Positions 894 through 58,600 of a stretch of DNA of 64,000 nt are shown one piece after another (position 1 is the first letter of the stretch; every line of letters starts with the position of its first letter). The notes under the pieces were generated by a model that had not been told where the DNA came from, searched no databases, and was given only the letters and a program-made list of their open reading frames with translations. The position numbers and the translations under genes were made by a program. Source of the stretch: Amphiscolops sp. MND2022 (lineage: Eukaryota); the NCBI GenBank assembly GCA_964187785.1, contig OZ076409.1:16680001-16744000 (forward strand). The letters run 5' to 3'.

Positions 894-1342
894 CTCAATG
901 TCCACAAATAGGGTGAGTTTCAACCCATATTCCAGCCCAGTTTTGCTCGTCTTCTTGATCAACTCTGGCTCAGATAAATTTCTGTCTCTTATTGAGTTGA
1001 AAGAAAAGCAATTACCATGGTACGGGTCCTGATAGGTCTTGAACAAATTATAGGAACATTTTCGCCCATCGAACGTACATTGTATTATGAAATCTTTTCT
1101 TTGATGGCCATTGCTTTGAATGAGATCTTTTCGAAGAACGATGGCTAATCGAAAGTCAGCGTAATCGGGTAACTCGGCTTTATCGTACAGTGAGAAATAG
1201 TCTCCGGCTTCGATTCCGTAAAATTGGTCGGTGTTTGCGAAAATATATTCGACCCAGGATGGGAAGTCAATGTAATCATAATCGTAATCTTCATAGTTGT
1301 AATCATAGTCCTCGTAATCTGAATCTGTTGTGTTATTACTAT
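894..1342 (-). CDS. DEG/ENaC internal exon
   Basis: Manual translation (not in the ORF track): DYEDYDYNY...GHQRKDFIIQCTFDGRKC...QDPYHGNCFSFN...GLEYGLKLTLFVDIE, canonical DEG/ENaC motifs. Acceptor CATGCAG| is phase 1, matching the previous donor. Confidence 0.88.
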
Positions 1343-5779: not shown

Positions 5780-6183
5780 AAAGTGTTCCTCTTTCGATTT
5801 TTTTTCGGCACTGTTAGACTATTTTCGAAAATTTCTTATTGTCTTCAAAGGGAAACCCTTCAGTTTTCTTATATTTTGCAACAGATTGTACGGTAAATTT
5901 TGAAATTCTGCAACAAATTGGAGAAGAGGGAGGTTCGAAAATATTGCGCTATATCCAAATTTCAGACGTTATATCCGAAGTAAATTGCGCTTTACCGAGG
6001 AGCAACCGGACGTTCCAAAAGATTAACATTATCCGAATTCTTGACGTTCTAACCGAGTAATTTTAAGGGTCTCGCTTTGGGTTTTTCAGAGACTGTCGAA
6101 AAGAACACTTGACGCTTTGAAGTCCTTTTGCTATTTTTGAGCCTTAGATAGGGCGCCGAATTACGCCGTTCCCAGCGTGTTTA
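5780..6183 (+). repeat. Diverged second copy of the same interspersed repeat
   Basis: TTTTTCGGCACTG...TTTTCGAAAA and TTTTTGAGCCTTAGATAGGGCGCCGA match 7280-7505. Confidence 0.45.
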
Positions 6184-7194
6184 TATTAACTGGAGAACTT
6201 CTTAAAACACTGACAGGAAAATTACATCTGCAAAATTTTTTCTCCAAATTTCGATGAGCTTTTCCTACACATTTTATTCTATATCAGAATAAATCAGTGA
6301 ACACGATTTCAACGCATCTCAAAGATCCAAACAGTAAAATATAACTTTTCCAATTGGTCACTAATAAAGTTGGGTCATGAGTTCCTATTTTCGTGTTTGT
6401 GTGATCATTACCTCGATTGATCCTTTGATAAGTAAATTTTCCTCGATTGATCTTTGCTCAAAAAGTTTTTTGTCTTTCTGGTATCAAGTGCTCGCGAGCG
6501 GGGATCCGTATCATCTAGAAATCAGATTACCCCAAAAAGTCTTTCCGTTAGTATCATCCACTACTGTAGGCAACACAAACGAGGCCAAAGATTTTTGCTG
6601 TTTGCCTGCGAAGTGCGAAGGCATTTTTTAACTCTTTTCACACATGGCTGTAGCGGTCTTTTCGGATAATGGGGCGGCTTTTCCAACTATTTTAGAAGTT
6701 ACATTACCTATCGTAAAAAACTTTTGATTGCAACCATGTTGTTGGTTTGTAACATCAAGCTAGCAGCCTACATTCTAGAACTGGGACACTGCCTAGGTTG
6801 CTTAGACTGGGGGGGGGGACTTTTCATGCGTCAAGGAGGCTCATCATTTTAGAGCTCCGTGGCGACATAATCCGTTGTTCCTGCGACTTCCTACACACTT
6901 CCAAGGTCCAAAAACGGCAGTTAGCTAAAACGCATTTTTATTGACGGAATAAGATCTAGAATAGGAACCTGGCAGGTCAAATATCACGATATCTCTGAAA
7001 AGCTGTACTAACAAAAAAGGATAGTCACAAATAAACCACCTGGGACCAAAATTAAGCGAATTTCGTATTTTGGACATAGTTTGTTTGGAACATTACGATA
7101 CATGAGCCTCATCGAACTAGCAAGGTCCACTTTTCTTACAATAGAAGCTACTAAAACTACTAAGGCCATAAGGCCAGGTCCGGTCAGCGGAAAT

Positions 7195-7525
7195 TAGTGC
7201 AAAAGGGTCCCCCCTTTCATTTTTAATTTTTTTAACGTAATCTACAAAACCGGACGAGACTAAAGGGTCCCCCCTTTCAATTTTTTTCGGCATTGTGCGA
7301 CTTTTTTCGAAAATATTTTAATGTCTCAAAAGAGTCCGCCTTTCGGGTTTGCAACAGAATATATGTTAATAAATCCCAAAGGGTCCCTCTTTTTACATTT
7401 TTCGGCACTATGCGACATTTTTCGAAAGAAAAATAAATTCACAATTTTCAAGTTTTTCTCAAAAAATGTTTTGCGCTTTTGGAGCCTTAGATATAGCGCC
7501 GACTTTAGACGTTCCTGTCTTGTTT
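7195..7525 (+). repeat. Interspersed repeat fragment (probably a non-autonomous TE)
   Basis: Internal repeats of AAGGGTCCC(C/T)..TTT...TTCGGCA. The 3' part GAGCCTTAGATATAGCGCCGA is shared with ~6140-6160. A reverse-oriented relative lies at ~1900-2030. Confidence 0.5.
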
Positions 7526-8214
7526 GGAATAGGCATGATTCTATTTTTAGAAACCAACTGTTGCTTCATTTCATTTTGCAGCGTCTGAACGAGCCGTAGC
7601 AACACGATCAGTCTGGGCACAGAAAACTCAACATCAGAAAATCCAACACAATGCAATATACAGAAACTCAACATAAGATAATTAGCCACACTTTCGCACT
7701 TCATACTTAGTGAGATTGACATGTGAGAAATTACCCAATATGCCTCATTTATTCAGCTAATTTTCAATTTTGGTGTGCCAATCAGAAAGCTTGCACCTGT
7801 TAACCAGCAATGTTGATGAGAGAAGCCACCTTTTACAACCTCTAAGCATTTACGCGACAATGTCAGTGAGGAAGGTCGTCTTGCGAAGACACCTCTCTGC
7901 TTCGTTGAGGTAGAAAGAGAACCCGTGATTTGATTATCTGTCTCATTGGCCCAACATTGGTCCCTTTTAGAATCGAGCTTTGGATCTATACATTTACACC
8001 TGATATCTATCCAACTCTTTTAAGACGCAGTTGTTTTCTTCTGTGTGCTGCTTGAGCCGGGCTTGCCGTGGTTTTAACCCCATTCATGATGGACGTCAAC
8101 TTTGGGCCTGGGGAGCTTCGCAACAACCCAACCCTCTCGGAACTAGTGTGTAGAAGTGTACATGCAAAATGACCCTGCAAATCACAGCTGAATAGAAAAT
8201 CAAAATGTAAATCA

Positions 8215-8943
8215 TGTAACGGCAAGCTCTGGTACAGCAATATCAACCGACATGTTTAGAAATTTTGTCAAAAATTCGTTCAAATTTGACGTGGCACTCA
8301 AACATGCTCAAGACGAAGTACCTGCCAGAAAAAGCACCCCAGAAAAACAGAAATTGCCGCTCGCGACGAACAAGCACCGGAGACGACTGAAAAGACGTCC
8401 CCAACGCATACAGAACACGGTATTGTGTCCATCTCTAGGAGATATCCATTACTACAGTAAAGGAAACCAGTGTTCCAGATGTTCGCCTGAGTATCCCTGC
8501 GGTATCCTGTGTGGCAACTAGCGCTAGCGCTGGGAAGCTGAGGTCAATTTTCATCAAATGATTCTGAACTCTTGATTTCTTGTTGTATTTTTCGATGTGG
8601 TAAATTAATATGCTCGAGAGCTGTTGTTTAACATCTGTTTATCCAATTTGGTGATTTTATCAGATTCTCCAATATTACGGTTCAACCTTCATCGATTTTC
8701 AGCCCAATTTTTAAAGGCTAGTTTAGCAGTGGTCTTGAGTCTTGCAAGATGCCTGTTACTTTTAGCAGTTACAGACTAGGACCAGGCCAGAGAGTATCCT
8801 ACAAGACGGTTCCCCCACCTTGGGACTGGCTCCTTCGGAGGGAAAATGAGCTAGAGCCGCGGAGATCTAGGTCCCAGATTATATTCGCTGTTCTAGTTCC
8901 TCCACTCTACGTTGCGGTTCAAGCGCCAGCGCTTATCGTTACA
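8215..8943 (+). repeat. 5' LTR of element 1
   Basis: Matches 38575-39303 with 7 substitutions counted by eye; TG...CA ends. Confidence 0.97.
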
Positions 8944-8958
8944 TAGAAACTCTTTTTT

Positions 8959-8978
8959 TGGCGACCACAGAGGGATCG
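8959..8978 (+). promoter_or_regulatory. Primer binding site, probably tRNA-Arg(TCG)
   Basis: TGGCGACCACAGAGGGATCG is complementary to a tRNA 3' end ...UCCCUCUGUGGUCGCCA, resembling metazoan tRNA-Arg(UCG). Identical in element 2. Confidence 0.75.
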
Positions 8979-10155
8979 TCTTGGGAAGCTTTCCCTAGCG
9001 GTTTTAAAAGATCTGGCCCCCTGGTGATCAGCGCCAAGCCCGTTTTCGACTCTGGACAGGAGAGAGAAGCAGAGTTTTACCTCTTTTTAGTCGTATTACG
9101 TCTTACTGGAACTGGGAGAGGCGTTGAACCAGAGAAAATGCCGAAGAAAACGTGTTTTCAGGTGTGAAAATGGTATTTTTGGGCATTTTAGAAGGAAATC
9201 GCTCTTTATGTGTGATGTGTTGTGTACTCATCAGCGGGTACCTTTTTGCAGGTGTAGAGGACCGTAGCACGTGGCTACGGGTGTCTAACAGGTTTTTTGA
9301 GCTATTTTCAGCCATTTTATGCCATGCAAGAGGGTACCGGATGGATGGTTGACCATACTCCAGCGAGGCGAAGGAGGGGACGAATCTCGTGTTGCCTACT
9401 TCCTATTCCCATTTCTCGTGGAGACGTCCTAGAGGCATGGTTTTTGGTGGACAGCAAGTGCAACGACAGACGGTGCTAATGGTTCCACCCGCGTGTTTCT
9501 GTCTGGTCTAGATGTGGAGAAATAACGTGGTGAAGATGCACCCCCTGTGACCAGATGCGTCGCTCAGATGGAGTATGGTTGGCGAAAATTTTGAAAATAC
9601 ACCTCTTTCGATGGAGAATCGTTGGTGCAGGTCAGTGACGTTCTACTTTAAATGTAACGACACCCTACGAAGTGCTTTTCTGCGAAAAAGATAGCACTTG
9701 GAGAAAAAAACCTCATTTTTACGTTTTTTTGGTGTTTTTCTTGGTTTCGAGCACTAGTGCTCACAGAAGCCAGGAAAGTTTGGTGGAAAACTTTGAAAAA
9801 GCAGCTGCAAGGCTCGAGAAAGCCGGCACGAGGCACGAAAGGTGAAGTTGAAGCCTTTGATTGTGATAAAAGTGCCAATTTGATGCCAAAAAATGTGGAA
9901 AAAGTGGAAATTTGGCCAAAAAGGCACCCAAAACGTGAACGTACACGAGTATGGAAGTGCAAAACGACAGTATACCGCACTACCCCAAGTGTAGTTGACC
10001 CTCAGGATACTAATTGCAACTTTTGTAGCGGACTCAGGCAGCCTGGGGCTGATACAGTGCGAAAAACTTGTGATTTTTGGCATTTTCGAGCAGAGAAAGT
10101 GCATTAACCGAAAACACCCAGAGCGAAGCTTATTCGAAGGGAGCGGGCTCGAGGG

Positions 10156-10428
10156 CTCTCATTTTCAATTTTAGCAGCAAAAACAACGCATTGTGGTGAA
10201 AACCGCGTGCAAAAATTCCTTTTCGGTGTTGAGAAAAGTTGAAAAACCTTGATTTTCGGCCAGTTTCAGGAGTGCCAGAGTGCATCATTAAAACCTCTGG
10301 GGCACTCAGTGTTTTCGAGACCTGGGAGCCCGCTCGCTCTCATTTTCTGTTTTTATAATAAAAACAACGCATTGTGGTGAAAACCGCGTGCAAAAATTCC
10401 TTTTCAGTGCTGAGAAAAGTGGAAAAAC
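10156..10428 (+). repeat. Two-copy ~90-bp repeat (period ~180 bp) in the leader of element 1
   Basis: AAAAACAACGCATTGTGGTGAAAACCGCGTGCAAAAATTCCTTTTC occurs twice. The pair is also present in element 2 (~57115-57380, minus). Confidence 0.8.
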
Positions 10429-11636
10429 GCACTGAATTTGATCAATTTTCCACAAAACCGGACTGTGTTTGAGCTAGGGTCGGGTCATCGATTCCTGAAA
10501 TCTAGCCAAAAAGTGGTTGCATTTTCGTAACCACCACAAAAATTAACGTTAGTGCCGAAAATTTGGTGAGCGTATCGCTCACCAAAGTCGAGAAAAGCTC
10601 TCTGACGTTTCGACTTCAGAAAAGCACAAAAAAGCCAAAAAAATCCAAAACTGCAGGACTGTCAGTGCCTTATACCTAACGGGCACAACCAAGTGAGGGT
10701 TCATCCCAGTGCTACGGATAGTGGGGCAACACGTTGGTCCCATTTTGCCCGCCGTATCACTTTCTGAGGTGATCCTCTTGGTCAAATTGTGAAAAAAGTA
10801 GTCAAAAACAGTGTTTTTTCGTGTACAACGTACATAGTAGGTCGAAACCTCAAATAAGCGTTCGCGCTTCAATTCGACCATTTCCGTGGCATTGTAGGTG
10901 CCCACTGGCATAAACTACTAAGTTTGGTGCCAATTTGTGCGATACTTGTTGAGAAAATAGGAAAAACGTGGCACCCAAAAAGGTGTCCAAAAAGGCAGTT
11001 TTTTCTTAACTTTTCCGAGTAACCCGGGCACCTTAGCCGACGGGTGGGACTATATTGCAGCCCGCCTTCGTAATTTGTGCTAGTTCCTACGTTGCTGCAG
11101 AGAATTTGAGCTTGCTAGCTCTTTCCAGTGGACCGCAATCTTGAAAAAGACGTGAAAAGCAGTGTATTTCGGTACATAGTGGTACCGCACGTCTGTACCT
11201 AGGTGAAACTGTGTTGAAGGAGCGCAGCTCAAAACTGTGTTCATTTTCGTAAACCTACGTGTACCTGAGATCTGTTGGTCAAATTTGGGCTTGATACAGC
11301 GCTTCCAGCACACACACGAGCCTTTTGAGTGTTGTCGTGCGAATTTTGAAAAACCCTAAAATTCTTTGAAATTCTTCCTGTGAGTGACTGGAGACTTTTT
11401 GCCCCAAACCAGATCAATTTTCTCGCCCAGTGCGCTTGTGGGAAAACGCTGTGCAAATTTGACCAGCCTACGAGCTCTAGAACGTGTTTCGAAAAATCTA
11501 GGACGTTGAGTAACATCAAATTTCTTAAGTGCTCACCGGGACGACCAAGGGATCAGCCTCGAATTGAAGACCCTGGTACGTTCGGCGACCCAATTTGAGT
11601 CTTCCGAGTAATCGTGAGCGGTAACTCGATCGCTAT

Positions 11637-14190
11637 TTGATAAACGCGTTGGCCACCGAACCGATGGCGGTGCCCCATACCGGTTCACAATCATGGATCA
11701 CGATAGATGGTTCGCGTTTTTCAGACGACATGTCTGACGAAGTCACTATCGAACAACAGCGAAAAGAGGAATTGGCCGCTATGGTTCCCCCCTCAGAGAA
11801 CTCCAGTGTTTCTGAAAATTCGCGTCGAACCGAGCAGTGGGTCGACGAAACCTGCCGCGATAGAGCCAATGAAGTGGAAGAGGGCTGGCCCAATTCGAAT
11901 GCAACCGATGAATTGGCGGCTGAGGAAGGGTGCTCGCGCGCACCCCCGGCTGGAGAGACACAACTTGGCTCACAGACCGACGTGGAGCAGGACTTCACTT
12001 ATGTGGGAGGCATGAGTTATGCGAGACAGCGAGGACTCGGGACCACTCGAGGACCTACCCGGGTCTGTGCCTATGGAAAGCACAAGAAGGTGCGACCACC
12101 CATACTGCAGGTAGGCGAGCCACGTCAAGAGGTATCCCGTGTCAGGAGTATGACAGGCTCATTGGCCTCGTCGCAACGGTCTTCGGTATACAAGGCAGCG
12201 TTATTGGATGCCCAAGCCGAAACCCAACGGGCTCTAGCAGGTCTGGCCAGCACTCGTGCTGAATGCAATGAGCAACATCTTGCCATCGTGGAGAACATTA
12301 AAGTGATGCAGACGACGATGCGCGAGGGCCTGCAAGTCAGCGATCAATTGCGTACCGCGCAGAACGTGCAAAATGCTAGAGTGGACACATTGGGTCACCG
12401 GATAGGAGAGATGAACGACATGTTGATGGCTCGCGAGTTGCGCGTGGAAACGCAGATCAACGACTTAAGCAATCAGATGCACACGGTACTCAATGCCATT
12501 GATGTCATGAGGCGTGAGAGGTCACTCCCGCGGCAGCCCAGTGCAAGTGGAGGCGGGCGTGCGGAATGGAGGTCCAGTCCGTATCTCGGAGCCGACGTGC
12601 CCGAGCCAGGTAGTGAAATCGGAACTGCCGAGCGTGCTGAAGCCTAGCACTTCCAGGCCGGCAGTGCCTGCGCCCCGGAAAGATGAAGGAGTAGCCGGAA
12701 ATTTGGTGATAGCCACGCCTGAGGCAGAGCGCAAGCCTGCACGAGTGCAGATGAGGGGACATCACGACTCAGCAGAGTCATCGATGCCTTCTGCAATCCA
12801 GAGCACCACTCGAGATCAAGGCGTGGAACCGATGTCGACCATCTATCTTGATTCTTCGGTTGAAGTCGACTTATCCAACACCAAGGCAACCCTAGGCTCT
12901 CAAACCGAGGGAGCAACGTTTGCAACTGCCCCTATTTCGATGTCAGGACCAGACTCCTTATACTTGACCGCAGACTTGTCAGCCGATCATGGACTGCCCT
13001 CGGGCACTCCCTGTGCTAGCAGCACTCGTAAAAAGGACGAAATCGCTGACCTGTCCATACAAGCCACTCTTGGTAGTCATGACAGGACGCGCGAGGGGGA
13101 GGCTAAGGTCGAAGAAGGAGAAGCCATATCCCCTGAGCAGCTGAGATTCACGGCCGCCATATCAAAGGCGATGTCAAAAGAGTTAGCGCCCTTACTCGCC
13201 GGCAGAGACTTGGCTCAGGCGAGACCCAATGTATATCGCGGTTCCAAAGACAGATCCATTGATGGGTGGATCCTCATTATGCAGAGATACCTGAAGAGAA
13301 CGCAAACCAAGGTCTCAGCCGAGGACCAGGCCTGGAGCATCATCGATCACCTTGAAGGTGAAGCGCGCAACTACATCATTAAGAAAGCGGAATCCGAACG
13401 TGACACCCCCGAGAAGGTGTTCGAATTGTTATCCAGCCACTTTGGCGCTGGGGGAAATCGTATGCAAGTACGACAAGCTTTCCAGAGCCGCATTCAACAT
13501 GAGAAAGAAGACTGGATGCAGTATTTAGACGCTCTAGAGGGTTTTAGAAGTCAAGGATTCCCGCAAGAGACAATCACTACCAAGCGCTATGAAATCCTCC
13601 AGCGCTTCATGGAAGGCGTACGAGACCCAGCGCTGAGGCGGGAGCTTGCCATAGTGTATGCCTCGGAAGTCTTCCTGACCGAGCCACCTACGGTGGAATC
13701 CCTTCGCTTCACAACCCGCCAATTGCAGCGCAATCGCCCCAAACCCAACCAATTCCCTCAACCCTATGACCCCAGACTAGCAATGAGGTCTAGACCTCAT
13801 CCCTTCGCGCCGCTACCCCCTAACAAGATGGTGTTACCACAAGGAGTAATGCCTCCCCCACCTGCGAGCAATGCCCCGCCAAATCAGGCAGCAGCGCAGC
13901 CTGCGGTACGCCTACCCGTTGGCGCATGCTTTAATTGCGGTCAAGCTGGACACTTTGCCCGGGACTGTCCCACCCAAGATGTAACTGATGGCGTGTTGGA
14001 GAATTATCCAGGCATTCATCAGTGTGCGCACTGTGGAGTCTATGACCATGTGGATGTCCCCTGTGGTGAGCATTCTCAAGCTCCAAGGCCTAATGATGAA
14101 TTGGCCTATAATCGATGGGCCGAGGTGGAATCCGCTGGTGTGGCCGCCCACACGGTACCCCTGGAAGATGATCGCGTGTTAATGCTGCAC
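11637..14190 (+). pseudogene. gag: gag of element 1 (coiled coil, capsid-like domain, CCHC knuckle); frameshifted near 12540 and cut by the insertion at 14190
   Basis: ORFs 11637-12647 and 12514-14190 align consecutively with element 2 Gag. Zinc knuckle CFNCGQAGHFARDC. Confidence 0.9.
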
Positions 14191-15207
14191 ATTACGACGC
14201 CAATCGGGGAAGTTTTGATTTTTTCAAGAATTGACAAAAGTTGGTTTTCTCACCTACCAAAATGTGTTTTCAAGAAATCACAAAAGTTGTGCACTTCAAA
14301 GAAAATGGTAGTGCCGCCAAAATGATTGAAGAATTCACACACTAATATTAGCAGTGCAAAAATGAAATTTTCAAGAAACGAGAAAATTGATTTGTGGATT
14401 CTTCATTTTAATGATAATCTATGCTGCACGTGTAACATCATTGGTGTGAGGATTCTTCGCATTTTGTCATTTCTTGTTTACTTTTCTGAATTCTTGATTA
14501 CTTTTCTGGATTCTTGAACACTTTTATGGATTCTTCTAAAAAATATGGTAATTAAATCTAACTTCTTTCTGGATTCATCAAAAACTTATCTCTGTTCTTT
14601 ATAACAATAACTGTAAATAAAATCGTAAAACCAACGGAGAATCGACACAATCTGATTGAATTAAGATTTTTTGATAATTTTGTCTATTGTTCTATTTGAA
14701 TTCAAACATAATATCTTCTTCAAATATCTCTAAACGACTCTTCTAGAGCAAAGTAACGACTCCATGAGTGTATGAACAACAGCTAGTTCATTCTTCAAAT
14801 GACTGGCCACGACTGACGACCACGAGTGGACAAGTAGACTTCAGACATAGTTTCACGTTTCAATGACAGTTCATTTTTGTCTAGAATTGTGCTATTTGAA
14901 ATCAAACATTTTATATCCAAAGTTGTTTTGTTCACAAAGTAAATTTTATTTCAGTTTAATTTTTTTTAATTCAGACTTTTTTCATTAAATCTAAGACTTG
15001 AAGCGACTCTATACAGACCACTCTGTATTCCCCACATGTCGATATGGTAAACGACATCGTTCCACTTCACAGCGATTGGACGGCATAATTGAAGATCCAA
15101 TAAACTGCGCTACTGCATCCCTTTTTGATGTGAAAAGGATAAATCAGTTGTTGATCGGTATTTTCCTTTACAGCGATAGGAAGGCACAATTGAAGATCCA
15201 CTGCATC

Positions 15208-15534
15208 CAGGGGTGTTCAATAAATAATTATGAGTGAGAATAATTGAAATGAATAAAATAAAATAATTTACTTCTACACTCAAATGAACAAAAATAATTA
15301 TTTTTGAACCTGTTAAAAGAAAAATAATTATTCTTGAGGTAACTAAAACTAACTAAGAACGTTTAATTCAACATATCGTCACCCATATAAATTCGAATAT
15401 ACAGAAATCTTGAGCTAATTTCCAGCTTGAGCTATAAATTCTTTTGACAAAAAATATATTTTTTTCTAATATGAAAATAAAATACTTGATTTTAAGGCAA
15501 CAAGAATATTCGAAAAAAGTATTGAACACCCCTG
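15208..15534. mobile_element. hAT-type MITE, copy 1
   Basis: 15-bp TIR CAGGGGTGTTCAATA / TATTGAACACCCCTG with 8-bp TSD ACTGCATC. Confidence 0.88.
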
Positions 15535-16714
15535 ACTGCATCCCTTTTTGATGTGAAAAAAAAGTTGATCGTGGTTATTTTCTTTCACAGCAATAGGAAG
15601 GCACTTTTGAAGATCCACTGCATCCCTTTTTGATGTGATGCATCCCCATTCGTTATTTTTCACTGCGATACGAAGGCAAAATTGAAGGTTCAATACGCCA
15701 CAGCATCCTTTTTTGATGGTAAAAACAGTGATGTCCATGTTCCATAACTAAAAAGAAATGAAAACTATTAAATCTGTAAACTGGGTATACTGAATTGATT
15801 TCAAATTTTACGGCGAATTGCGCAGTAGAATCGAGGAACTAATTACTATACATGGTAGGAAGAATCTATAATTGGATAATAAAACATGCGAGCGTGTAAA
15901 TAGAAAGTTATGGTCCACGAGTTCAAACCAAATTTGTTCGTTCATTTTTGTGGATTCTTCACAACAATAGGAAAGCTATGAACCTACGTTCGTAAACTCC
16001 GTACAAAAACGGTTTGAATTTATGTGTATTTGAATTATCGAATTACAAAATTAATGGTAACCTATGATTGCATCAACCTTCAACTGAAAACTAAGAATAT
16101 GGTCCCTAAACAATTGCTCCCGGAGTCGTTACAAAATATTGGGAAGGATCATTTTTGCATCGAAAAAGATGAACTAATCGAACTCCACTAAAACGTACGA
16201 AAAAGCCACAAAATTACCTGACATCACGTATTCGGAAGGATCCAAAACACAGCCTTTTTTCTCAACTTCTTCAATGTATGTCGCCTTACTAAGTATGGTT
16301 TTGAAAAGCTATCAATCAAAAAAAATATTCTTTGATAAAAGAGGTTGTTATCAATCAATCATTACTTAGACCAAAGTAAGAATAGTATACAATTGAGCAA
16401 TCAAATTCGTGTTAGTATTTATTTGTGTGCGATACAACGGCATATAGGGGATGGTAGCGCAGTTGATATTTCACATGAGTATGCAGTGAAGCTAGACGCG
16501 TTGTCTACCACCGGATCGAACCTCACATATACACTCTTTGGCGACTCTATACAGACCATCGTTTCACTTCACAGCGATTGGAAGGCATAATTGTAGATCC
16601 AATGAGCTCAACTGCGCTACTGCATCCCTTTTTGATGTGAAAAGGATAAATCAGTTGTTGATCGTTATTTTCCTTTACAGCGATAGGAAGGCACAATTGA
16701 AGATCCACTGCATC

Positions 16715-17064
16715 CAGGGGTGTTCAATAAACAACTTTACCTAAGAATCATTGAAATGAAAAAAAAATAAAATAATTTACTTCTACCCTTAAATGAACAA
16801 AAATAATTATTTTTGAACCTGTTAAAAGAAAAACAATTATTCTTGAGCTAACAAAACTAACTAGGAACGTTCAATTCAACATATCGTCAGCCAATTAAAT
16901 TCGAACATACAGAAACAGCTTTTGTTGATATCCGTTTTTCGCTGAGAATAAAAATATTTCTTTTAACAAAAAAAATAATGAAATCGTTTATTTTTTCACT
17001 ATGAAAATAAAATAATTTATTTTTAGGCAACGATAATTATCGAATAAAATATTGAACACTCCTG
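16715..17064. mobile_element. hAT-type MITE, copy 2
   Basis: Same TIRs (one mismatch), same 8-bp TSD ACTGCATC and same flanks as copy 1. Confidence 0.85.
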
Positions 17065-17695
17065 ACTGCATCCCTTTTTGATGTAGAAAAAGATCAGTTG
17101 TAAATTTCCTTCACAGCGATAGGAAGGCACTTTTGAAGATCCACTGCATCACTTTCTGATCTGCAAAAAGATCAGTTCTTTGTTGGTGCTTTTCACAGCG
17201 ATAGGAAGGCATTTTTGAAGATCCACCGCATCTTTTGATGTGGAGAAAGATCAGTTGATCCTTGTTAATTTCTCTCACAGCGAGAGGAAGGCACTTTTGA
17301 AAATCCACTGCATCCCTTTTTGATCTGAAAAAAGATCAGTTGATTGTTGGTACTTCTCAATAAGATAATAAATGGGATATAATTGGATAATAAAACATGC
17401 GAGAGTGTAAATCGAGAGTATTGGTCCACGAATTCAAAACAAATTTGTTCGTTCATTTTTGTGGATTCTTCACAACAATAGGACTGCTATGAACATACCT
17501 TTTAAAACCTCATGCAAAAATGGTTTGCAATTTTGATTCAATTGAAAAAAACATGAAAAAATACATTGCAATTTTGTAACTAATGAAAAAATACAATGAT
17601 CTTTGTAATCGCGTTGCCTAAGCTTGGTAAAAAGAATTTTCGAGTGGTAACTGTATCTTCAATTATCTTGGAACATATGGTACTGTTCGATCTCT

Positions 17696-18196
17696 TAGTT
17701 GAACAATTTGGGACCATGTGTTCAATTCCCCCCAGGTACACCTTGCTGCGAATTTCCCCCCCCCCCCCGAACACGAAAACACATTTTGTTCTTTAATAAA
17801 AATATCTCACTAGTAAGAGAATATTATATGAAAGTATATACTCAGAGGGTTGCCTCTACAACTGTTTGGACACTTCAGGTAAAAAAATTACCAAAATGTT
17901 TTGATATTATTATCCAAAATAGCAGAAATTTGCGTTTTAAACAAACTAAAATTGTATAAAAAAGCCCCGAATTCAGCGCAAATTTTGTCCGCTATAAAAT
18001 CAAATTAGCAATTTTTAAATGACAGTCAATGTAATGGATAGGATTATGTCGACATCAATTATTATATTGGACCAAAATTTCAACGCAAACTATGTCGACA
18101 TAATGGTTTTTGAACCTTCTGTCTTATTTCCTCCCCCCACCCGCCGCAGTTTGAGGAGGGGGGAATTGAACACATGGTCCACAATTTGTTCAACTA
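17696..18196. mobile_element. ~500-bp MITE-like element, possibly with TA target duplication
   Basis: ~38-bp imperfect inverted repeats (TA)GTTGAACAAwTTG(T)GGACCATGTGTTCAATTCCCCCC at both ends. Confidence 0.7.
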
Positions 18197-18334
18197 GGCA
18201 GGTATCTTGTCAACCTATTGTTGATCATTGTTCTTTTAACCGCTACCACATTCCCCCGCCGGCAATTGACGGTTGGGAATTTCCATTAATATACTAATAC
18301 AAGTAGTAAAAAGAACAACTAAATTTGTTTATGT

Positions 18335-21300
18335 TTATTTGGTACAGTTGAAGTCATGCGCTGATGGAGCAATGGCAATGACGTCCCTGTACTTCATGAA
18401 ATCAGACTGCAGCCAAGGCCTGACTTCGAAAGAGCGGGTGATGAACTTTTTTTCTGTAAGGCTCCATTCTGAAACAGTAACATGCAGTCGTAACATCTGG
18501 GAGCAAGTGTCTACGGGAGGGGAACCATTGGATGACTTGGAAATTCGGGAGCATACAAATTGAAAGAAGATTTTTTTGAATGCAGATTTTGGACAACGAT
18601 TACTTTGAAGGTGCAACTTCCTTTGAATGCAAAGGTACCCTTTTATTCAAAACCAATTACCTCTTCGGTGGGTTCGGAGCGGCTGCGGAGTGGCTGCAAT
18701 CTCTCGAGTGACCAAGGTGAGACTGTCTACGGCCTCGCAGAAATCTTCTTCATCATACGGTGGCTGGTTGCATGGGGGATGGCTGGTTGGAAATTGGAAC
18801 CGACCATGATCATCGGTTTTCGATTCAAGACGGTTTTCGATTCAAGCCAAGTTCGTTTTCTTCAGGGAGACGGTCAAGAAACTTCCTCCTGAATATCGTC
18901 CCTTGCTTGGCTCCTCGTCGAACACAGCCATGTTGAAGGCAGGGAACACCTGTAACAAACACAACTTTTATCTTAACAATTTTATTGGGACCTAAATACT
19001 ATTGAGATACTGTCAGGATACATATCTACCCCTCGTAAAATTTATCAATTTTGGGATTGCTCACAACAACAAAACAACGAGCATGTTTGTTAGAAGACTT
19101 ACTTCTGTAGTGGAGGCTTCTCCGTTCTTCATGTGTTCTGCTACTTTTTGGAAGAGGTGCCTGTACTCATCACCCAAGTAGTTGGGGCGCAGCTTGCGGT
19201 AGTTGTACAGCAACACACTCCACACTGTCGTCAAATCGGGATATCTGGAATACATAAATATTATACTCAAGGTAACAATTTACAAGAGAACAATTGGTGG
19301 AGGGGTATTAGATGTGACACTTATAATGTTCTATTGAGTATGCATTAATATTTCCCAACTTCAAACTTATGTTCCCTGACAAATTGCTCCCGGAGTCGTT
19401 ACAAAACTTTCGTGGATGATTGTTTTGAATTGGTCCCCAAAGATGCTCCCGGATTCGTTAAAAATATTGGGAAAGGTTGTGTCTTCTATAACATTTTGAA
19501 TTGATTGCCGAACATGCTCCCGGAGTCGTTACAAAATAAAAAGAGGAGGTGTTTCTGCATTGTTTAATGTCCTTCACATTCTCGTTTCAGCTATATAGAT
19601 GGTAGAGGAAGTATAGTGATGTTGTATATTTTCTATATATAAAACTTTACCGTGTATCTTCTTCAATGTCGAAGTGGGCATCCACAATTAGTCTACTGTG
19701 CCCAAAACTCAGGAAATTAGCACCGAGTGCAATTGAGTCGCCGTGGGTAAGGACACAGTGAATCCACTTTGAAGGCAGAACAATGGCATCACCTGCCCTT
19801 GCATGGATCCTGTGACAGCCCCCCTCTAACGTCTGCAGGTCTCCAAATGATGTTGTTCTAAATATCACACATAAAAAACACAAATGAGGGGTTTTGATAG
19901 AATTCAGTTGAGTGTTTATTTTCAGCATTACCCGAAAAATGACAATTTTTTTCTAAAGAGATTGTCTACTTTCTATACACTAAACGAACATAGATTTTAG
20001 GGAAATGACGTGAAGTAGGATGTTTATACTTACAGGCTGCGAGGGTCTTTCTCACTGTACTGCTGAAAGAGTTGCAAGTTCTTCTTTGTTGGCTCAACAA
20101 GCCAGAAGATTTTCTCACCGAGCAGTACCACGTAGAAAACTGACGTGCTTGCGAAATCAATGTGCCACGGGGTGACACATTTGTCGTTGGATAGCAGCAG
20201 GTAGTTCCACGTGCTCTCCGTCAAGTACCCATCGCTCTGAGAACCTGCCAGATTTGACTCAACATAGCGGTCGATTGCGGCATTTCGTACCGCAGTAGGT
20301 GGTGAAAACATCTAAAAACGAATGTACTTAAACTACTTAAAATGTGAAAGTTGCTTTCTTATATCTTAAGAAGAAAATTTCGCAGAGTCGTTTACATATG
20401 GGAACTGGGCACCTATAAAATTTGTCAGTGACTTTCAAAGGTGTTTAAAAGTTATTTTTTCTTCACTTTACTGTTTAACTAGTTTCCATTTTATCTAAAT
20501 ATCTCATTACCGCATGTTGAAGGGTTGCATCTAGCACGTTGACAGGAAAGAGTCCTTCACGGGCTGCTTCTGGGCCGGAACGCTGTTCCGCCAGATACTC
20601 CTCTCTGGTCAAACTTCGTATCTGCAAATACATTTTGTACTCTAGTTCAAATGATTTTTTGTTGAATGTGAAAACGCAGTAGAATTGAGACAATAGTGAC
20701 TAAATGTTGCGAAGAATCTACCACTGGATAATAAAACATTGAAAATTTAATTTGAAGGTAGTGGTTCATGATTTTAAAGCTACACAAAATATACATTTTT
20801 TGTGGATTCTTCGCAAAAATGTGATTTGAACAATTTTGTTTTGGCTGCGAGAACACAGTAGAAATGGGACAATAATGATAAAACACGTTGCGAAGAATCT
20901 ACCACTGGATAATAAAACATTGAAAATTTAATTTGAAGGTAGTTGTCCATGATATTTCACAACGATACAAATGAAAACTTTTGCGAATTCTTCACAGCGA
21001 TAAATATACGCGTTTGTGTGCGTGCTCTTAAATCCAGGAAAGTTTTTCTGTAAACCAACCGCACTTTATAGTTTAAAATCTCACCTCGTTCACTCTGGCC
21101 GACTTTGCAGAAATGGGGACATCCGGGTTGGCAACATGCTGCAACAAATGTCCTGCTAGAGGCAGAAACTGAGTTGCCTTGTCCTCCGGAACATGGGGTA
21201 TGACGAGGCCTTCTGCGTTGTCCCTTGCACCTCTCCACAAGATGGGGAAACCATGGGCCAAATAACAGAAGACTTTCTTCGTCTGATCTTCCACGGCCCC

Positions 21301-24062
21301 ATTCCAAACAACGCACTTTGGGACGGTGCTCTGACGCGTCCCCTCGATGTGCTCGTAGTACCTAAGAACAAAAAACAACTACTTTTTTTCCTAGTACAAT
21401 TAAAGGTCTTTATTATTCTGGCACGGATTAAATATTCATTTTTATCTACCTATAGGTATGAAAAGGAAATTGACATCTGTTGTATTCTGGTAAGGTCAGC
21501 TATAGTTTTAACAAAAAAGTATTCTATTTGACTTTCATTTCTTTCAAACTTGCAATAACATATTATGCCAAATAATACTTGAGTACTCTATGTATTCTGT
21601 AGCATAGCTATCAACTCGAATTTCCCTCACCTGTAAGTGCCGTCCTTAGCCGCTTTCTGGGGAACCGGTAGAAGTTCATGTCCTTGAACCTGTGATTCGG
21701 CACTCGCTCCAGATGGCGCAGCAGATTGCTCCGGGAAGAAAACTGCTGTTCACAGCCCTCACAGCTTGTTGGCTTGAGTTTCCCCGTTACAGTCTCTGGA
21801 ATAAAAGAAAAACTTCAAAACAACTTCAAAACATGGGCGTTACGTTTCTATACCGCAAGCACAACTATCAAACTATCATTAGTTTCTCAAAAGTGTAAAA
21901 GATACTTGTAACCATATATAGCAAGACCGTTTCTCTAGGCAGGTTTGTAATGACATCGGTAACTTACTGTATTTCTTCAGAGCTGGGGAAAGACCTTGAG
22001 CCAATTCACTCGCCCTCTTGGCACAGCTCTGGGTCTGCTGATGACGTTTGAGGGCATCTTTTGTCGACACAGGTTGTAGACACAGGTTGCAAGTGAAGCT
22101 ACCACTTCCGCTGGCCACCTCCGGCACCGGCTTGGATCCTTCGCATTTTTGGACGTGTCTGTTGTAATTGAACAACCTGGTCGACTCATAAGGGCACTTC
22201 GGACACTTCATCTGGGGTTTTGGAGGCATTTTCTGTTTTATGAAAAAAATTATTTTAGTTTTTTTTTAATTTGTTTCCTTATGATCTGTTTCCATATTTC
22301 CTTACATTTATCGCGCTCATGGAGCCGTTACAACCTCCTGGCTAAACATTAACTTGTTGTTCTCTATCCGTTGCGCTCTTGGAGTTGTTACATCAAACTA
22401 AACATTTGTTTTTAGTCCTGTTGTCATCCTGCTCATGGAGTCGTTACGAGGGATTCTCAAATAACATATGAGCAATTAGCATAAAAAATGGGACATTAGC
22501 ATAAAACACAGTAGAAATGGGACAATAATGATAAAACACGTTGCGAAGAATCTACCACTGGATAATAAAACATTGAAAATTTATTATGAAGGTAGTGGTT
22601 CATGATTTTAAAGCTACACAAAATATACATTTTCGTGGATTCTTCGCAAAAGTATGATTTGAACAAGTTTGTTTTGGCTGCGAGAACGCAGTAGAATTGG
22701 GACAATAATGATAAAACACGTTGCGAAGAATCTACCACTGGATAATAAAACATTGAAAATTTAATTTGAAGGTAGTTGTCCATGATATTTCACAACGATA
22801 CAAATGAAAACTTTTGCGAATTCTTCACAGCGATAAATATACGCGTTTGTGTGCGTGCTCTTAAATCCAGGAAAGTTTTTCTGTAAACCAACCGCACTTT
22901 ATAGTTTAAAATCTCACCTCGTTCACTCTGGCCGACTTTGCAGAAATGGGGACATCCGGGTTGGCAACATGCTGCAACAAATGTCCTGCTAGAGGCAGAA
23001 ACTGAGTTGCCTTGTCCTCCGGAACATGGGGTATGACGAGGCCTTCTGCGTTGTCCCTTGCACCTCTCCACAAGATGGGGAAACCATGGGCCAAATAACA
23101 GAAGACTTTCTTCGTCTGATCTTCCACGGCCCCATTCCAAACAACGCACTTTGGGACGGTGCTCTGACGCGTCCCCTCGATGTGCTCGTAGTACCTAAGA
23201 ACAAAAAACAACTACTTTTTTTCCTAGTACAATTAAAGGTCTTTATTATTCTGGCACGGATTAAATATTCATTTTTATCTACCTATAGGTATGAAAAGGA
23301 AATTGACATCTGTTGTATTCTGGTAAGGTCAGCTATAGTTTTAACAAAAAAGTATTCTATTTGACTTTCATTTCTTTCAAACTTGCAATAACATATTATG
23401 CCAAATAATACTTGAGTACTCTATGTATTCTGTAGCATAGCTATCAACTCGAATTTCCCTCACCTGTAAGTGCCGTCCTTAGCCGCTTTCTGGGGAACCG
23501 GTAGAAGTTCATGTCCTTGAACCTGTGATTCGGCACTCGCTCCAGATGGCGCAGCAGATTGCTCCGGGAAGAAAACTGCTGTTCACAGCCCTCACAGCTT
23601 GTTGGCTTGAGTTTCCCCGTTACAGTCTCTGGAATAAAAGAAAAACTTCAAAACAACTTCAAAACATGGGCGTTACGTTTCTATACCGCAAGCACAACTA
23701 TCAAACTATCATTAGTTTCTCAAAAGTGTAAAAGATACTTGTAACCATATATAGCAAGACCGTTTCTCTAGGCAGGTTTGTAATGACATCGGTAACTTAC
23801 TGTATTTCTTCAGAGCTGGGGAAAGACCTTGAGCCAATTCACTCGCCCTCTTGGCACAGCTCTGGGTCTGCTGATGACGTTTGAGGGCATCTTTTGTCGA
23901 CACAGGTTGTAGACACAGGTTGCAAGTGAAGCTACCACTTCCGCTGGCCACCTCCGGCACCGGCTTGGATCCTTCGCATTTTTGGACGTGTCTGTTGTAA
24001 TTGAACAACCTGGTCGACTCATAAGGGCACTTCGGACACTTCATCTGGGGTTTTGGTGGCAT
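18335..24062 (-). pseudogene. Multi-exon zinc-finger + JmjC (KDM2/KDM7-like) histone demethylase gene; core exons intact, 3' part apparently decayed
   Basis: GT-AG exons: 24062-23801 (two C2HC fingers), 23628-23464 (CEGC..HLERVPNH), ~23194-22918 (PILWRG..GLVIP); duplicates 1833 bp lower; then 20621-20511 (VNVLDATLQ), 20311-20034 (YLLLS..CVTPWHIDFASTSVFY..GEKIFWLVEPT..NLQLF), 19857-19651 (PSKWIHCVLT..GANFL), 19244-19103 (YPDL..W). Splice phases agree from exon 3 to exon 7; the exon 2/3 phase is unresolved. Confidence 0.85.
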
Positions 24063-24322
24063 TTTCTGTTTTATGAAAAAAATTATTTTAGTTTTTTTTT
24101 AATTTGTTTCCTTATGATCTGTTTCCATATTTCCTTACATTTATCGCGCTCATGGAGCCGTTACAACCTCCTGGCTAAACATTAACTTGTTGTTCTCTAT
24201 CCGTTGCGCTCTTGGAGTTGTTACATCAAACTAAACATTTGTTTTTAGTCCTGTTGTCATCCTGCTCATGGAGTCGTTACGAGGGATTCTCAAATAACAT
24301 ATGAGCAATTAGCATAAAAAAT
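20865..24322. repeat. Near-identical tandem duplication, period 1833 bp, covering ZnF-JmjC exons 1-3
   Basis: ORF pairs offset by exactly 1833 (21879/23712, 21073/22906). One synonymous difference seen (CCT/CCA at codon 2). Confidence 0.95.
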
Positions 24323-24984
24323 AGTTTCAAATAACATAAAATTGAAATGGGTTTCACTGAACATAAAAAGAAAATTGTTTACGAGAAAGTTTCAGTGGTC
24401 AAAAGCAATCACAAATCAAAAGACTCCCTGAAAAATGTGTGGAAATTACAGATTAAATTTTCTGAGTTCGATTGTTTAACCGGGTATTCGGATTTATTTT
24501 TATTTGAAACTAATTTCATTTTTATGTTGTTTGACTCTAATTTTGTTTTTATGCTATTTGCACTTATGCTATTTGGTACGTAATCGTTATTTGAAACTAA
24601 TTTCTTTTTGTACTGTTATTTCTTCATGTTATTTGCACCTATTTTCTAAACATTTGTGTTATATCTTCTTTTCATCGCGCCCATGGAGTCGTTACATCTG
24701 ACTAAATGTTTTTTTCATGTCCTATATTCATCGCGCTCATGGAGTTGTTACAAATGACTAAATGTTTTTTAAACTGGAACAGCTGCAAATTTTGGGACGG
24801 CAAAGCTTAAATTGTACCAAAAATAAAACACTTGACTTACCTTACTCGAAGATTGAATTTGATTGTTCAAATTGAAGTTCTGCAGTCTTCTTGTTGTGTT
24901 CAGATTGACGACTGATTGTCAGCAGCAATGTTTGTTAAATAACGTTATTGAATAAAGCGAGGGATTCCGAACACCAATTTCTGC

Positions 24985-25302
24985 GCGTCATGGTCACGTG
25001 ACAAAAAGTTCATCTAATTCCAAGTACATGTAACGATTTTGGATCAAGCGAGGTATTTTGTTTACGTGACTTACTAAATTCTGCGAGTCATGGTCACGTG
25101 ATAGAAGGAAGAATAAGAATAAGAATGAAATTTTAAAGATTTGTAGAGATTTTAGAGATTTGTATAGAGCGAGGGAAGAAATGAGTGAAAAAATGAATGA
25201 ATTCACGAAGAAATTTCAATTTCGTAAATCCTTTTACGAACCATGTCGGGACTGAACGAAATTTTCATCGACCGGAACCAAAAGAACTGCTGTGACGTCA
25301 TA
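24985..25302 (-). promoter_or_regulatory. Putative promoter of the ZnF-JmjC gene
   Basis: GTCATGGTCACGTGA (E-box) twice, 100 bp apart, plus TGACGTCA (CRE) at ~25293. Lies upstream of a donor AAG|GTAAGT at 24841/24840 and an acceptor CAG|AAAATG at the start codon. Confidence 0.45.
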
Positions 25303-26507
25303 GGTATATGTATTGCATTAACTGTAGTTAACGAATGACTTCGTTCGCTCACAACAATACAATCTATTTGAACGCTCCTGCAGTTGTTACAAAAATAACA
25401 CTTTTTAGAAATGTTTTAGTTTTAAACTGGTAAATGTTTTAGTAATAAATACTATAGGAATGTTTCATTACAATAGGTTTTTTTAAAGTTGGCAAAAAGG
25501 GGGGGGGGGTATCTATTTTAAACATTCTACCTAAACACTCCTGGAGTCGTTACAAATTTTTTATGATCAGAGAGAGTTTACGCAATTTGTTATACAGGGC
25601 AACGTATTTTTTACATGTAATAATACGCGCACAAAACTTTATATATGTGTCCAATGTAACGGCATAATGGGGGGTGGCGCAGTTGATAGTTCCCGTGGGT
25701 ATGTATTGGAGCTTGATGCGTTGTCTACCACTTGTTCGATCCCCACCCATAAACTTCCAGGTGATTCGATGCAGACTACTCTGCATTCCCTCCTCCACTG
25801 TATTGATTGAGCAGAAGAGTGTGTTCCGCTTCACAATGATAGCAAGAGCCCGCATGGAAGGATCACTGAGCCACTGCATCCCTTTTGATGCACGGGACAA
25901 ATAGAAATAGTTTTTTTATTTTGACAAACATGGGGGGTATTTATTTGAAACTTTCTACTTAAACAATTCTGAAGGCGTTACAAAATCATTTGAACCATTA
26001 CACTTTATAGGAAGTTTTTAGACGGCAAACAGGGGATTTATATTCTGAAAACCATTTCAAAATATTCAACAAAATAATTCATATACAAACGGAAGGATCC
26101 ACAAATTAATTTTCTTTCGTTGAATTATTTTTGGTTGTGAATTATTGGTTGTGAATTATTGGTGGTGAATTAATATTGGTATTTCGGTGAACTCATACGA
26201 AACGAAGAATCCACAAAAATATAATACCTCCAATAAGTGACCTAATTAACGAAGAATCCACGCCAACTAATAATTGCTTAGTGAAGAATCCACACAATTT
26301 CAAGAATCGAGAGAAACGAGAGAAATTTCATTTTGGCGATTCTTCGCAGGTTACACACGGTATTAGTGCAAGAATCCAGAAAAATATTTCACTCCACTTT
26401 TGTCAATTCTTGAAACGCATGTGTTATAATGCAGTTCAAGAATCCACATAAGACTACAACAGATTTGTTGCAGTCACCGTTTTTCCCCGATTGGCGTCGT
26501 ATTGCAC

Positions 26508-58565: not shown

Positions 58566-58585
58566 CGATCCCTCTGTGGTCGCCA
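58566..58585 (-). promoter_or_regulatory. Primer binding site of element 2
   Basis: TGGCGACCACAGAGGGATCG on the minus strand, 15 nt from the LTR end. Confidence 0.75.
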
Positions 58586-58600
58586 AAAAATGAGGTTCTA

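Follow-up and report, generated by a model that had tools for sequence, protein, structure and literature searches.

Does a DNA transposon that carries a histone-demethylase gene use it to rewrite the chromatin of its own copies, or does the gene merely travel with it? This question was raised by an insert in a 64-kb window of the genome of Amphiscolops sp. MND2022 (the window being the whole stretch of DNA that was analysed: 64,000 nucleotides, positions 16,680,001 to 16,744,000 of contig OZ076409.1). This window belongs to a eukaryotic assembly of 1.07 Gb (GCA_964187785.1), in which all whole-genome matches given below were counted. An earlier, sequence-only reading of the window had proposed that the insert is a DNA transposon whose cargo, a spliced minus-strand gene for three zinc fingers followed by a JmjC domain, encodes a mobile, sequence-targeted eraser of repressive chromatin. 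We found that the insert is a dead, non-autonomous deletion derivative of an approximately 20.5-kb, multi-copy, cut-and-paste DNA transposon, and that full-length copies of this transposon hold four conserved genes: a transposase, a putatively Tudor-like protein (henceforth gene 1), a SET protein and the zinc-finger-JmjC gene.

The insert and its transposon family

Across the insert (14.2–26.5 kb of the window) GC content drops from approximately 0.55 to 0.34. A gag open reading frame (ORF) with a zinc knuckle is broken off at its left edge, and retroelement ORFs pick up at its right edge. The interrupted host is a long terminal repeat (LTR) retroelement on the + strand (8214–38873; delimited by its ORFs, its LTR repeat pair and uninterrupted copies), in the gag ORF of which the transposon sits. 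Given that the LTR samples of this host retroelement are 99% identical, the insertion is young. The edges of the insert pair as an inverted repeat, and comparison with the ends of other copies showed the terminus to be the 22-mer CATTACGACGCCAATCGGGGAA, with the terminal inverted repeat (TIR) pattern CATTACG...CGTAATG. The left TIR (14190–14211, + strand) is conserved terminally in all copies that were inspected. The right TIR (26483–26504, - strand; recognised from the inverted-repeat pair and from other copies) reads ...CGTATTG, such that the two ends of the window copy pair at 21 of 22 positions, the exception being due to ATTG at a right end that reads AATG in most copies.

Directly outside the TIRs lies a 2-bp target site duplication (TSD), CA, at 14188–14189 and 26505–26506. 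Matching 2-bp TSDs were seen in 5 of 5 elements with both flanks compared, and their sequences (CA in the window, TC, GC, CG and GG elsewhere) confirm that copies occur at different flanks, as the sequence-only reading had proposed to check. The anchor word of the empty site was present in two of the five uninterrupted host-retroelement copies examined, both with a single CA (in L036 the site reads GCTGCA followed directly by CCCAGCGG, and L033 differs by one base), and the gag frame is continuous across the empty site, given a 2-bp duplication. From the TIR alignment across copies, the TSD and the empty site, we therefore placed the element at 14190–26504, replacing the limits of 14191–26502 proposed earlier. 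The sequence-only reading had been right about a TIR-bounded insert with a target duplication in gag-pol; its TIR length of 19 bp has grown to 22 bp, and its ATT duplication has given way to the 2-bp CA, ATT as a 3-bp TSD being ruled out by its position inside the TIR in every copy inspected.

Both ends of the element are multi-copy in the genome (86–99% identity, mostly 92–99%). We scored 40 of 646 left-end candidates and 40 of 548 right-end candidates, and found that 30 of the 40 left ends pair with a right end: 11 at a distance of 19.8–20.7 kb, 13 at a shorter one (1.2–17.6 kb, the window copy among these) and 6 at a longer one. When compared by blastn with a full-length copy on C6 (loci L017–L019), the window copy was 98.7–99.4% identical and corresponded to the full element without its positions 812–10621 (a 9.8-kb internal deletion, the junction of which lies at 14998–15003) and with a 1,833-bp tandem duplication added (two tandem copies at 20654–24337, limits approximate, as seen from self-repeats and from the full-length copy). 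The deletion removed three genes, namely the transposase, the SET gene and gene 1. The earlier description of the zinc-finger-JmjC gene as the only recognisable gene thus holds for the deleted window copy and fails for the full element, whereas the transposase-bearing partner that the same reading had suggested looking for was found in the full-length copies, which carry a predicted DDE transposase. Copies of the family are 98–99% identical, reflecting high recent activity.

Several observations concern the shortened copies themselves. Gene-less derivatives of 1.2–1.9 kb share the same ends (C3:61275244-61276468, C1:30485477-30486807 and C11:49106887-49108817). The ATTG variant of the right end (window 26501–26504) also occurs in the 1.9-kb C11 copy (L008, C11:49105387-49108895), and this shared end hints at a common parent of that copy and the window copy. 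A size class of approximately 7.97 kb recurs, with 4 copies within 14 bp of one another, which suggests that deletion derivatives are themselves mobilised.

The zinc-finger-JmjC gene

By comparing a full-length copy with three diverged subfamilies (introduced below), we resolved the zinc-finger-JmjC gene into nine conserved minus-strand blocks. Every junction between them has an in-frame canonical GT..AG pair, including that between exons 2 and 3, the phase of which the sequence-only reading had left open. The joined frame is open from its ATG over 603–640 codons (depending on the choice of the last acceptor) and has no stops. Exon 1 (start codon and zinc fingers 1 and 2) and exon 2 (third finger) are each present twice in the window, at 21942–22229 and 23775–24062, and at 21630–21814 and 23463–23647, respectively. 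Together they encode three zinc fingers (Pfam zf-C2H2, E of 5.4e-7 and 1.6e-4), the Cys and His residues of which are retained in other subfamilies.

The catalytic part was recognised from Pfam and from matches to the Protein Data Bank (PDB) in exon 5 (20033–20311), which holds the T-x-x-H-x-D motif (VTPWHIDF) and the GEKIF lysine, and in exon 6 (19653–19871), which holds the second Fe-binding histidine (SKWIHCV). In PDB searches, these two exons matched PHF8 (2.1e-10) and KDM2A (7.2e-10), as well as KDM7A and the C. elegans KDM7 homolog (5.3e-7 for the weakest match). The T-x-x-H-x-D residues, the GEK lysine and the second histidine (WIH) align to those of PHF8/KDM7; specifically, the Thr and Lys that bind 2-oxoglutarate (2OG) lie in VTPWH and GEK, opposite YTDFH and GEK of PHF8. 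These Fe/2OG residues are intact in 4 of 4 subfamilies. The central observation of the sequence-only reading, a spliced gene for three zinc fingers and a JmjC domain that keeps its Fe/2OG residues, is thus borne out by the Pfam matches and by the aligned residues.

The blocks around these exons were defined by subfamily comparison and by profile alignment with hhalign. Exon 3 (21082–21369, and again at 22915–23202) supplies the N-terminal part of the JmjC fold, exon 4 (20502–20624) follows it, and exon 7 (19091–19246) starts a helical region past the JmjC core. Searched singly, exons 3, 4 and 7 gave nothing meaningful in Pfam, in a PDB sequence search or by BLASTP against a KDM7-type protein; their only PDB hits (fimbrial subunits, E of 0.0016) were taken as chance. 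Joined, the blocks of exons 3–7 are colinear with the KDM2/7 core when aligned to 16 KDM2/7-type proteins (hhalign probability 99.9%, E of 1.5e-32, 255 columns). The same profile-profile comparison placed FPVNVLDAT of exon 4 (specifically PVNVLDAT) on the NVISLEFS stretch of a KDM7-type protein, so the NVISLE segment that the sequence-only reading had reported as missing is encoded at 20502–20624. A word-index search with the 93-aa JmjC exon returned a single match among 71 candidates (P0001), which reads through an intron and was of little use. Judged by its residues, the JmjC core is catalytically intact and of the KDM2/KDM7 type, and we predict it to have demethylase activity.

Exon 8 (18641–18964; subfamily comparison and Pfam) opens with an ELM2-like motif conserved in three subfamilies. 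It scores 28.6 bits in one subfamily (t66; Pfam cutoff 21.7), 18.6 bits in the window family and 15.6 bits in another (t76), in each case over the first 22–27 of the 53 positions of the Pfam profile. Exon 9 (18335–18452; subfamily comparison and splice model) is the last conserved block and contains the stop codon. No SANT domain was detected in the protein, and Pfam gave only the zf-C2H2 and ELM2-like matches, with none of the accessory domains of KDM7 (PHD) or KDM2 (CXXC/F-box). The window's own copy of the gene is dead, as the sequence-only reading had suspected: both exon-2 duplicates carry a 1-nt deletion that shifts the frame, exon 8 is broken by three gaps (10 inserted bases and 1 deleted base), and exons 1–3 are duplicated.

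Age, selection and origin of the cargo

We then asked how widely the cargo occurs and whether it has been maintained. The genome holds at least 150 scored matches to the JmjC exon (1122 candidates) and at least 150 to the SET ORF (852 candidates), which fall into identity tiers near 97, 76, 66, 52 and 45%. A SET hit lies within 12 kb of 49 of the 70 best JmjC hits, and the remaining 21 include deletion derivatives such as the window copy. One element was fetched from each of three tiers (henceforth t76, t66 and t52), and all subfamily comparisons rest on these. The gene set of the t76 and t66 elements is identical in order and orientation to that of the window family, and the t52 element has all genes, with the transposase inverted. 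Related perfect TIRs (CATTACG...CGTAATG) bound the t76 (22,184 bp) and t66 (18,945 bp) elements; none were found for t52 within the 30 kb fetched. The single t66 element (L026–L028) has ATG on both flanks, which may be a duplication of 3 bp instead of 2 bp. In the single t76 copy, the two flanks differ, and a second left end is located 330 bp inside.

Between subfamilies, dN/dS was 0.11–0.24 in all nine segments with computable dS (JmjC, 0.11 and 0.21; zinc fingers, 0.16; SET, 0.13, and its upstream blocks, 0.20–0.22; transposase, 0.11–0.16; gene 1, 0.13–0.24), in alignments that were picked by protein similarity, which favours low dN, and with dS saturated in most deep pairs. Within the genome, 23 of 23 exon-5 copies with at least 90% identity over the whole exon are open, as are 18 of 22 SET copies with at least 87% identity.

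A search of the JmjC exon against 1.84 billion representative proteins gave 599 hits at E of 1e-3 or lower, 9 at 1e-10 or lower and 0 at 1e-30 or lower. The best of these were short ORFs covering the whole exon, while long KDM2/KDM7-type proteins matched in the core only, with an E of 1e-9 or weaker. Pfam showed 39 long hits to have canonical KDM2 (CXXC, PHD_4, F-box, LRR) or KDM7 (PHD, JmjC, JHD) architectures, in agreement with the earlier statement that host members of these clades use CXXC and PHD domains, not N-terminal fingers. In a quick, unrooted tree (IQ-TREE, 50 rows, 185 columns, SH-aLRT support only), a branch of length 1.08 with 99% SH-aLRT support separated all 33 canonical sequences from a group made up of the 4 transposon sequences and 12 short ORFs; one further short ORF (P0080) fell on the canonical side only via a weak, long-branch join. 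The transposon JmjC was therefore placed outside both the KDM2 and the KDM7 clades. The assignment to the KDM2/KDM7 clade in the sequence-only reading accordingly survives as a statement about the best solved relatives (PHF8, KDM2A and KDM7), and not as one about tree position.

These results bear on whether JmjC, SET and the other genes are simply captured host genes without a function for the transposon. DNA transposons do capture host gene fragments, and the JmjC gene of the window copy is broken, as a passenger might be. However, the same linked gene set is present in subfamilies with saturated synonymous sites and with the low dN/dS values given above, the catalytic residues are kept in every subfamily, the gene has a complete intron-exon structure with an open frame of approximately 600–640 aa, all 23 exon-5 copies with at least 90% identity over the whole exon are open, and no near-identical host gene was found among the genome matches, in the 1.84-billion-protein library or in the tree. 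We thus consider passive cargo to be highly improbable and already largely refuted. Given the recurrence across subfamilies that share only 45–76% protein identity, the low dN/dS and the intact residues, JmjC is an old, selected gene of the transposon rather than a recent host capture. The sequence-only reading had attributed the gene to the transposon while naming three patterns that would speak for a host origin (single-copy exons, near-identity to a host gene with dN/dS near 1, and copies without these TIRs); what we found was a multi-copy gene inside TIR-bounded elements of the window family and of two diverged subfamilies, with a dN/dS of 0.11–0.21 and no near-identical host counterpart.

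The transposase and its placement

Two + strand ORFs of the full-length element (306 and 628 aa) are exons of one transposase gene; they align end to end with P0004, a database protein of 992 aa (42% and 62% identity). The large protein collection contains 33 relatives. No Pfam transposase family was matched at E up to 0.1–1 by the window-family ORFs or by 9 homologs, and the only Pfam match of the transposase was BRCT (26.7 bits; cutoff 21.3). Its structure was assessed by an AlphaFold model of P0004, the 62%-identical homolog (24 sequences, pLDDT 67.5). This model superposed on the mouse RAG1 core with a Z-score of 15.8 (root-mean-square deviation 4.1 Å over 383 residues), on Helicoverpa Transib (HzTransib) with 14.1 and on an amphioxus RAG-like protein with 13.9, and Foldseek matched it to RAG1/Transib-like folds with an E of 1e-6. 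Residues 781–930 superposed on the BRCT domains of 53BP1, MDC1, BRCA1 and XRCC1 (Z 10–11.7). D307/D311, D394 and E689/E692 are invariant in every covering row of a 24-row alignment. In the ESM Atlas, RAG1 clusters reached 0.87 for the transposase, below the 0.9 line, which we treat as a lead only. Taken together, the model predicts a DDE enzyme of RAG1/Transib-like fold that carries a BRCT domain at its C-terminus.

The TSDs of Transib and RAG-like elements are 5 bp long, compared with 2 bp here. The clade that unites EnSpm/CACTA, Mirage, Chapaev, Transib and others (CMCT) is described, in passages of its recent survey, as having 5'-CA...TG-3' termini and TSDs of 2–5 bp (Kojima 2025, PMC12730594). 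Our element resembles this clade in its CA...TG termini, its 2-bp TSD, its subterminal repeat arrays (see below) and a modelled transposase core that superposes on RAG1 and Transib (Z 14–16). It differs in that its transposase has no Pfam transposase match, bears BRCT at the C-terminus and shows no evident C(2)C / H(3-4)H motif; specifically, H469, H686 and H696 are conserved in the 24-row alignment, but no CxxC pair is conserved at 85% or more, so the Cys/His motif of CMCT transposases is not evident, which counts against the placement. It also differs in its chromatin-enzyme cargo, which appears in none of the passages covered here. In size it has precedents, as elements of 16–20 kb with 4–5 ORFs are on record in the EnSpm group of a red alga (passages of PMC6431247). 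We have therefore filed it as CMCT-like and not as a member of a named superfamily.

One metagenome locus (L039:506–1243) holds a distant relative of the transposase (38% identity). Just upstream of it, on the opposite strand as in the window-family element, lies a sequence homologous to the C-terminal domain of gene 1 (23% identity, E of 3e-13). Possibly, this domain belongs with the transposase as a core partner.

The SET gene and gene 1

The SET gene is a minus-strand ORF with a clear Pfam SET match (3.6e-12, 47 bits). Its best solved relative is KMT5A/SET8 (8.6e-12, vs. 5e-6 for KMT2A), and the alignment shows the GxG, NH and FDYG motifs. The protein is thus KMT5A/SET8-like in sequence and a putative methyltransferase. 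Conserved upstream blocks suggest that the gene is multi-exon. One of them (L017:8441–8734, minus strand) had no family match; its pattern may resemble that of the core-binding region of tyrosine recombinases.

Gene 1 is a single continuous ORF in t52, has no Pfam hit and, for its C-terminal part, no usable ESM Atlas match. Its structural model is poor overall (pLDDT 52.8) and better in two N-terminal barrels (pLDDT 61–80), which Foldseek matched to the 53BP1 tandem Tudor (4.3e-4) and, with similar scores, to SETDB1, ADCP1 (Agenet), KIN17 and BAHCC1. These matches weakly suggest that the N-terminus is tandem-Tudor/Agenet-like, and hence a putative reader. Individual full-length copies carry single lesions: in the C6 copy, gene 1 is interrupted by a stop (L017:1432–1434; open in t76 and t66), and the SET ORF of a C5 copy contains a TGA (C5:12655047-12655613).

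Subterminal and internal repeats

The motif GTGGATTCTTC (with at most one mismatch) has 17 matches in the window vs. 1.36 expected, and all 17 lie inside the insert. Motif counts delimited a left array at 14328–14536 (+ strand) and a right array of the same motif in inverted orientation at 26092–26447 (- strand); the matches near the left end are mostly on the + strand, and those near the right end are without exception on the - strand. This layout is that of subterminal repeats. Self-repeats further revealed non-coding internal repeats at 15003–17600, consisting of duplicated blocks of approximately 1.5 kb and of 82-nt units with the core CACAGCGATAGGAAGGCAC. The full-length copy contains them as well, and the whole block could be a protein-binding array.

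What the accessory genes may do

How might these genes serve the element? The proposal we favour is that they work for it by changing the methylation of histone lysines at its own copies or in their immediate vicinity. The zinc fingers would bring the JmjC enzyme to element DNA, for which the subterminal or internal repeats are candidate sites. There the enzyme would remove silencing methyl-lysine marks laid by the host (of the H3K9me1/2, H3K27me2 or H4K20me1 class), so that the transposase gene could still be expressed and the ends would stay accessible, while the SET protein would write, and the Tudor-like protein would read, a mark that belongs to the element itself. Targeted removal of host-laid marks over the element, i.e., anti-silencing, would be an enzymatic counterpart to VANC of plants and to the fungal transposons that bear TET/JBP (in passages of PMC12730594). 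It is inferred from this analogy, and we consider that it could equally well prove right or wrong.

Several points weigh against anti-silencing. Because the JmjC lies outside both the KDM2 and KDM7 clades, its substrate is not readable from kinship. A KMT5A-like writer and a PHF8-like eraser in one element do not obviously amount to anti-silencing, and the combination of the ELM2-like motif (over the cutoff only in t66) with a SET8-like writer looks closer to repressive than to activating machinery. The Tudor-like assignment comes from a poor model (pLDDT 52.8, Foldseek E 4e-4), and the selection estimates carry the alignment bias described above. Finally, none of 19 metagenome transposase loci holds JmjC or SET, although at 1.1–7.4 kb these loci are short for a linkage test. 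Given the SET8-like writer, the Tudor-like reader and the ELM2-like motif, a simple eraser that counteracts silencing is only one reading among several.

One of the others is suggested by the matches themselves, as the best or near-best solved match of each of the four domain families falls in the H4K20-methyl/53BP1 pathway: SET with KMT5A, JmjC with PHF8, the gene 1 barrels with the tandem Tudor of 53BP1 and with the BAHCC1 tandem Tudor domain bound to H4K20me1, and BRCT with 53BP1, MDC1 and BRCA1 (Z 10.5–11.7). PHF8 removes H4K20me1 and 53BP1 reads H4K20me2. SETD8/PR-SET7 is described in published abstracts as the H4K20 mono-methylase. The writer, eraser, reader and BRCT domain could accordingly act on this pathway at the double-strand breaks of excision and integration and bias repair, e.g., to copying the element back from the sister chromatid, instead of counteracting silencing. 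These are generic folds, however. Tudor, Agenet, KOW and SH3-like tandems score alike on the low-confidence gene 1 model, the BRCT matches extend to XRCC1 and ligase III, the JmjC matches KDM2A (an H3K36me2 enzyme) just as closely while lying outside both clades, SET specificity is unreadable at approximately 30% identity, and the zinc fingers are left without a role. We therefore regard the steering of repair or replication as unlikely, though deserving of serious attention. A more specific idea is that the lineage has a self-contained circuit that writes, erases and reads a single histone methyl mark, with H4K20me as the most plausible candidate (SET8-like, PHF8-like and 53BP1-like Tudor proteins with a RAG1-like transposase that bears a BRCT domain of the DNA-damage type), and that this circuit sets the chromatin at the element's own excision and insertion breaks; this seems to us quite unlikely. 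If true, it would mean that the host's choice of repair pathway is steered for the element, with silencing marks perhaps erased too, and that the transposon has an entire toolkit for epigenetic and repair signalling instead of just one anti-silencing factor.

The ELM2-like motif points to a further explanation. Known ELM2 domains recruit deacetylases, and ELM2-SANT modules recruit HDAC1/2. A JmjC-ELM2 co-repressor (demethylating an active mark, e.g., H3K36me2, together with a deacetylase) and SET8-like compaction might thus repress the element locally, thereby limiting its own copy number or transcription or shaping target chromatin. This would fit the conservation of the motif in three subfamilies (above the Pfam cutoff in one), the presence of KDM2A among the best JmjC matches and the description of SETD8's H4K20me1 as "typically associated with repression" (abstract of PMC10031314). 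On the other hand, the ELM2 match covers only the first half of its profile, SANT was not detected, a costly four-gene module for self-repression would be harder to maintain by selection on the element, and the family has been highly active recently. Self-restraint of this kind appears distinctly unlikely to us.

Other features of the window

Within the transposon, 29-nt inverted repeats (93% complementary, 424 nt apart) at 17705–18186 delimit what looks like a small nested MITE belonging to the family sequence. Outside it, a second large LTR retroelement (40418–58900) lies head to head with the interrupted one; the LTR samples of the two are 99% identical (with starts separated by 30.4 kb and 18.2 kb), and the interiors share 72–86% similarity. 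A tandem array of at least 5 copies of units of approximately 185 bp (72–94% identity) occupies 59900–60941.

Significance and comparison with known systems

Few transposons are known to fight or exploit the epigenetic control of their hosts with proteins of their own, namely those with VANC in plants, TET/JBP in fungi and SET genes in oomycetes. To these our element would add, if our reading is true, a young, active DNA transposon lineage of an animal-type genome with a residue-intact JmjC, a histone methyltransferase and a possible methyl-lysine reader, and with this chromatin-gene set conserved under selection across deeply diverged subfamilies. The question of whether a transposon enzymatically rewrites histone marks on itself or at its breaks thereby becomes testable, as dozens of natural copies in which each gene is either present or missing occur in this genome. 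There are also consequences for annotation: hundreds of JmjC and SET exon matches (1122 and 852 candidates) belong to these elements, and element exons miscounted as host genes would mimic lineage-specific expansions of chromatin regulators. Moreover, the combination of a RAG1/Transib fold with a BRCT domain and a 2-bp TSD is relevant to how the transposase clade evolved.

From general background, one comparison is with TnpA of En/Spm, a second CACTA protein that binds the subterminal repeats and has been reported to promote loss of methylation from the element. Unlike the JmjC protein described here, TnpA is not an enzyme.

In the literature searched, we found no transposon-encoded JmjC, Repbase Reports and Dfam lying outside that search. 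The term JmjC has no occurrence in PMC12730594, passages of which name VANC, TET/JBP and the SET genes of oomycete HarbingerS/MuDR elements as epigenetic genes borne by transposons. Nor is it in the main text of a study whose covered passages describe fusions of chromatin domains with transposon domains (bioRxiv 10.1101/2021.11.30.470311). An account of the KDM7 and KMT5A complements of annelid hosts makes no link to transposons in the passages covered (PMC12153100).

The closest parallels resemble the element in part. VANC, the anti-silencing protein of the Arabidopsis VANDAL (MuDR) elements, is not an enzyme of this kind and belongs to another transposon superfamily, whereas the protein described here is a 2OG/Fe(II) JmjC with C2H2-type fingers and a predicted function, in an animal-type genome. 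The TET/JBP genes of fungal transposons (KDZ, Plavaka, hAT, Harbinger and Helitron), some of which fall in the CMCT clade, likewise place a 2OG/Fe(II) dioxygenase for epigenetic methyl groups inside DNA transposons (passages of PMC12730594); TET/JBP acts on 5-methylcytosine in DNA, whereas a KDM2/7-type JmjC acts on methyl-lysine. The Phytophthora HarbingerS/MuDR elements also carry a histone-lysine methyltransferase (SET) gene, as cited in passages of PMC12730594, although in another superfamily and host, whereas the KMT5A-like SET gene described here is linked to a predicted demethylase and a putative reader. Finally, the host enzymes KDM7 (PHF8/PHF2/KDM7A) and KDM2 (FBXL10/11) are the best sequence matches of the JmjC protein and share its Fe/2OG residues and a colinear core of 255 columns, but they combine this core with PHD (KDM7) or with CXXC, PHD_4, F-box and LRR (KDM2), whereas the transposon protein combines it with N-terminal C2H2-type fingers and a C-terminal ELM2-like motif.

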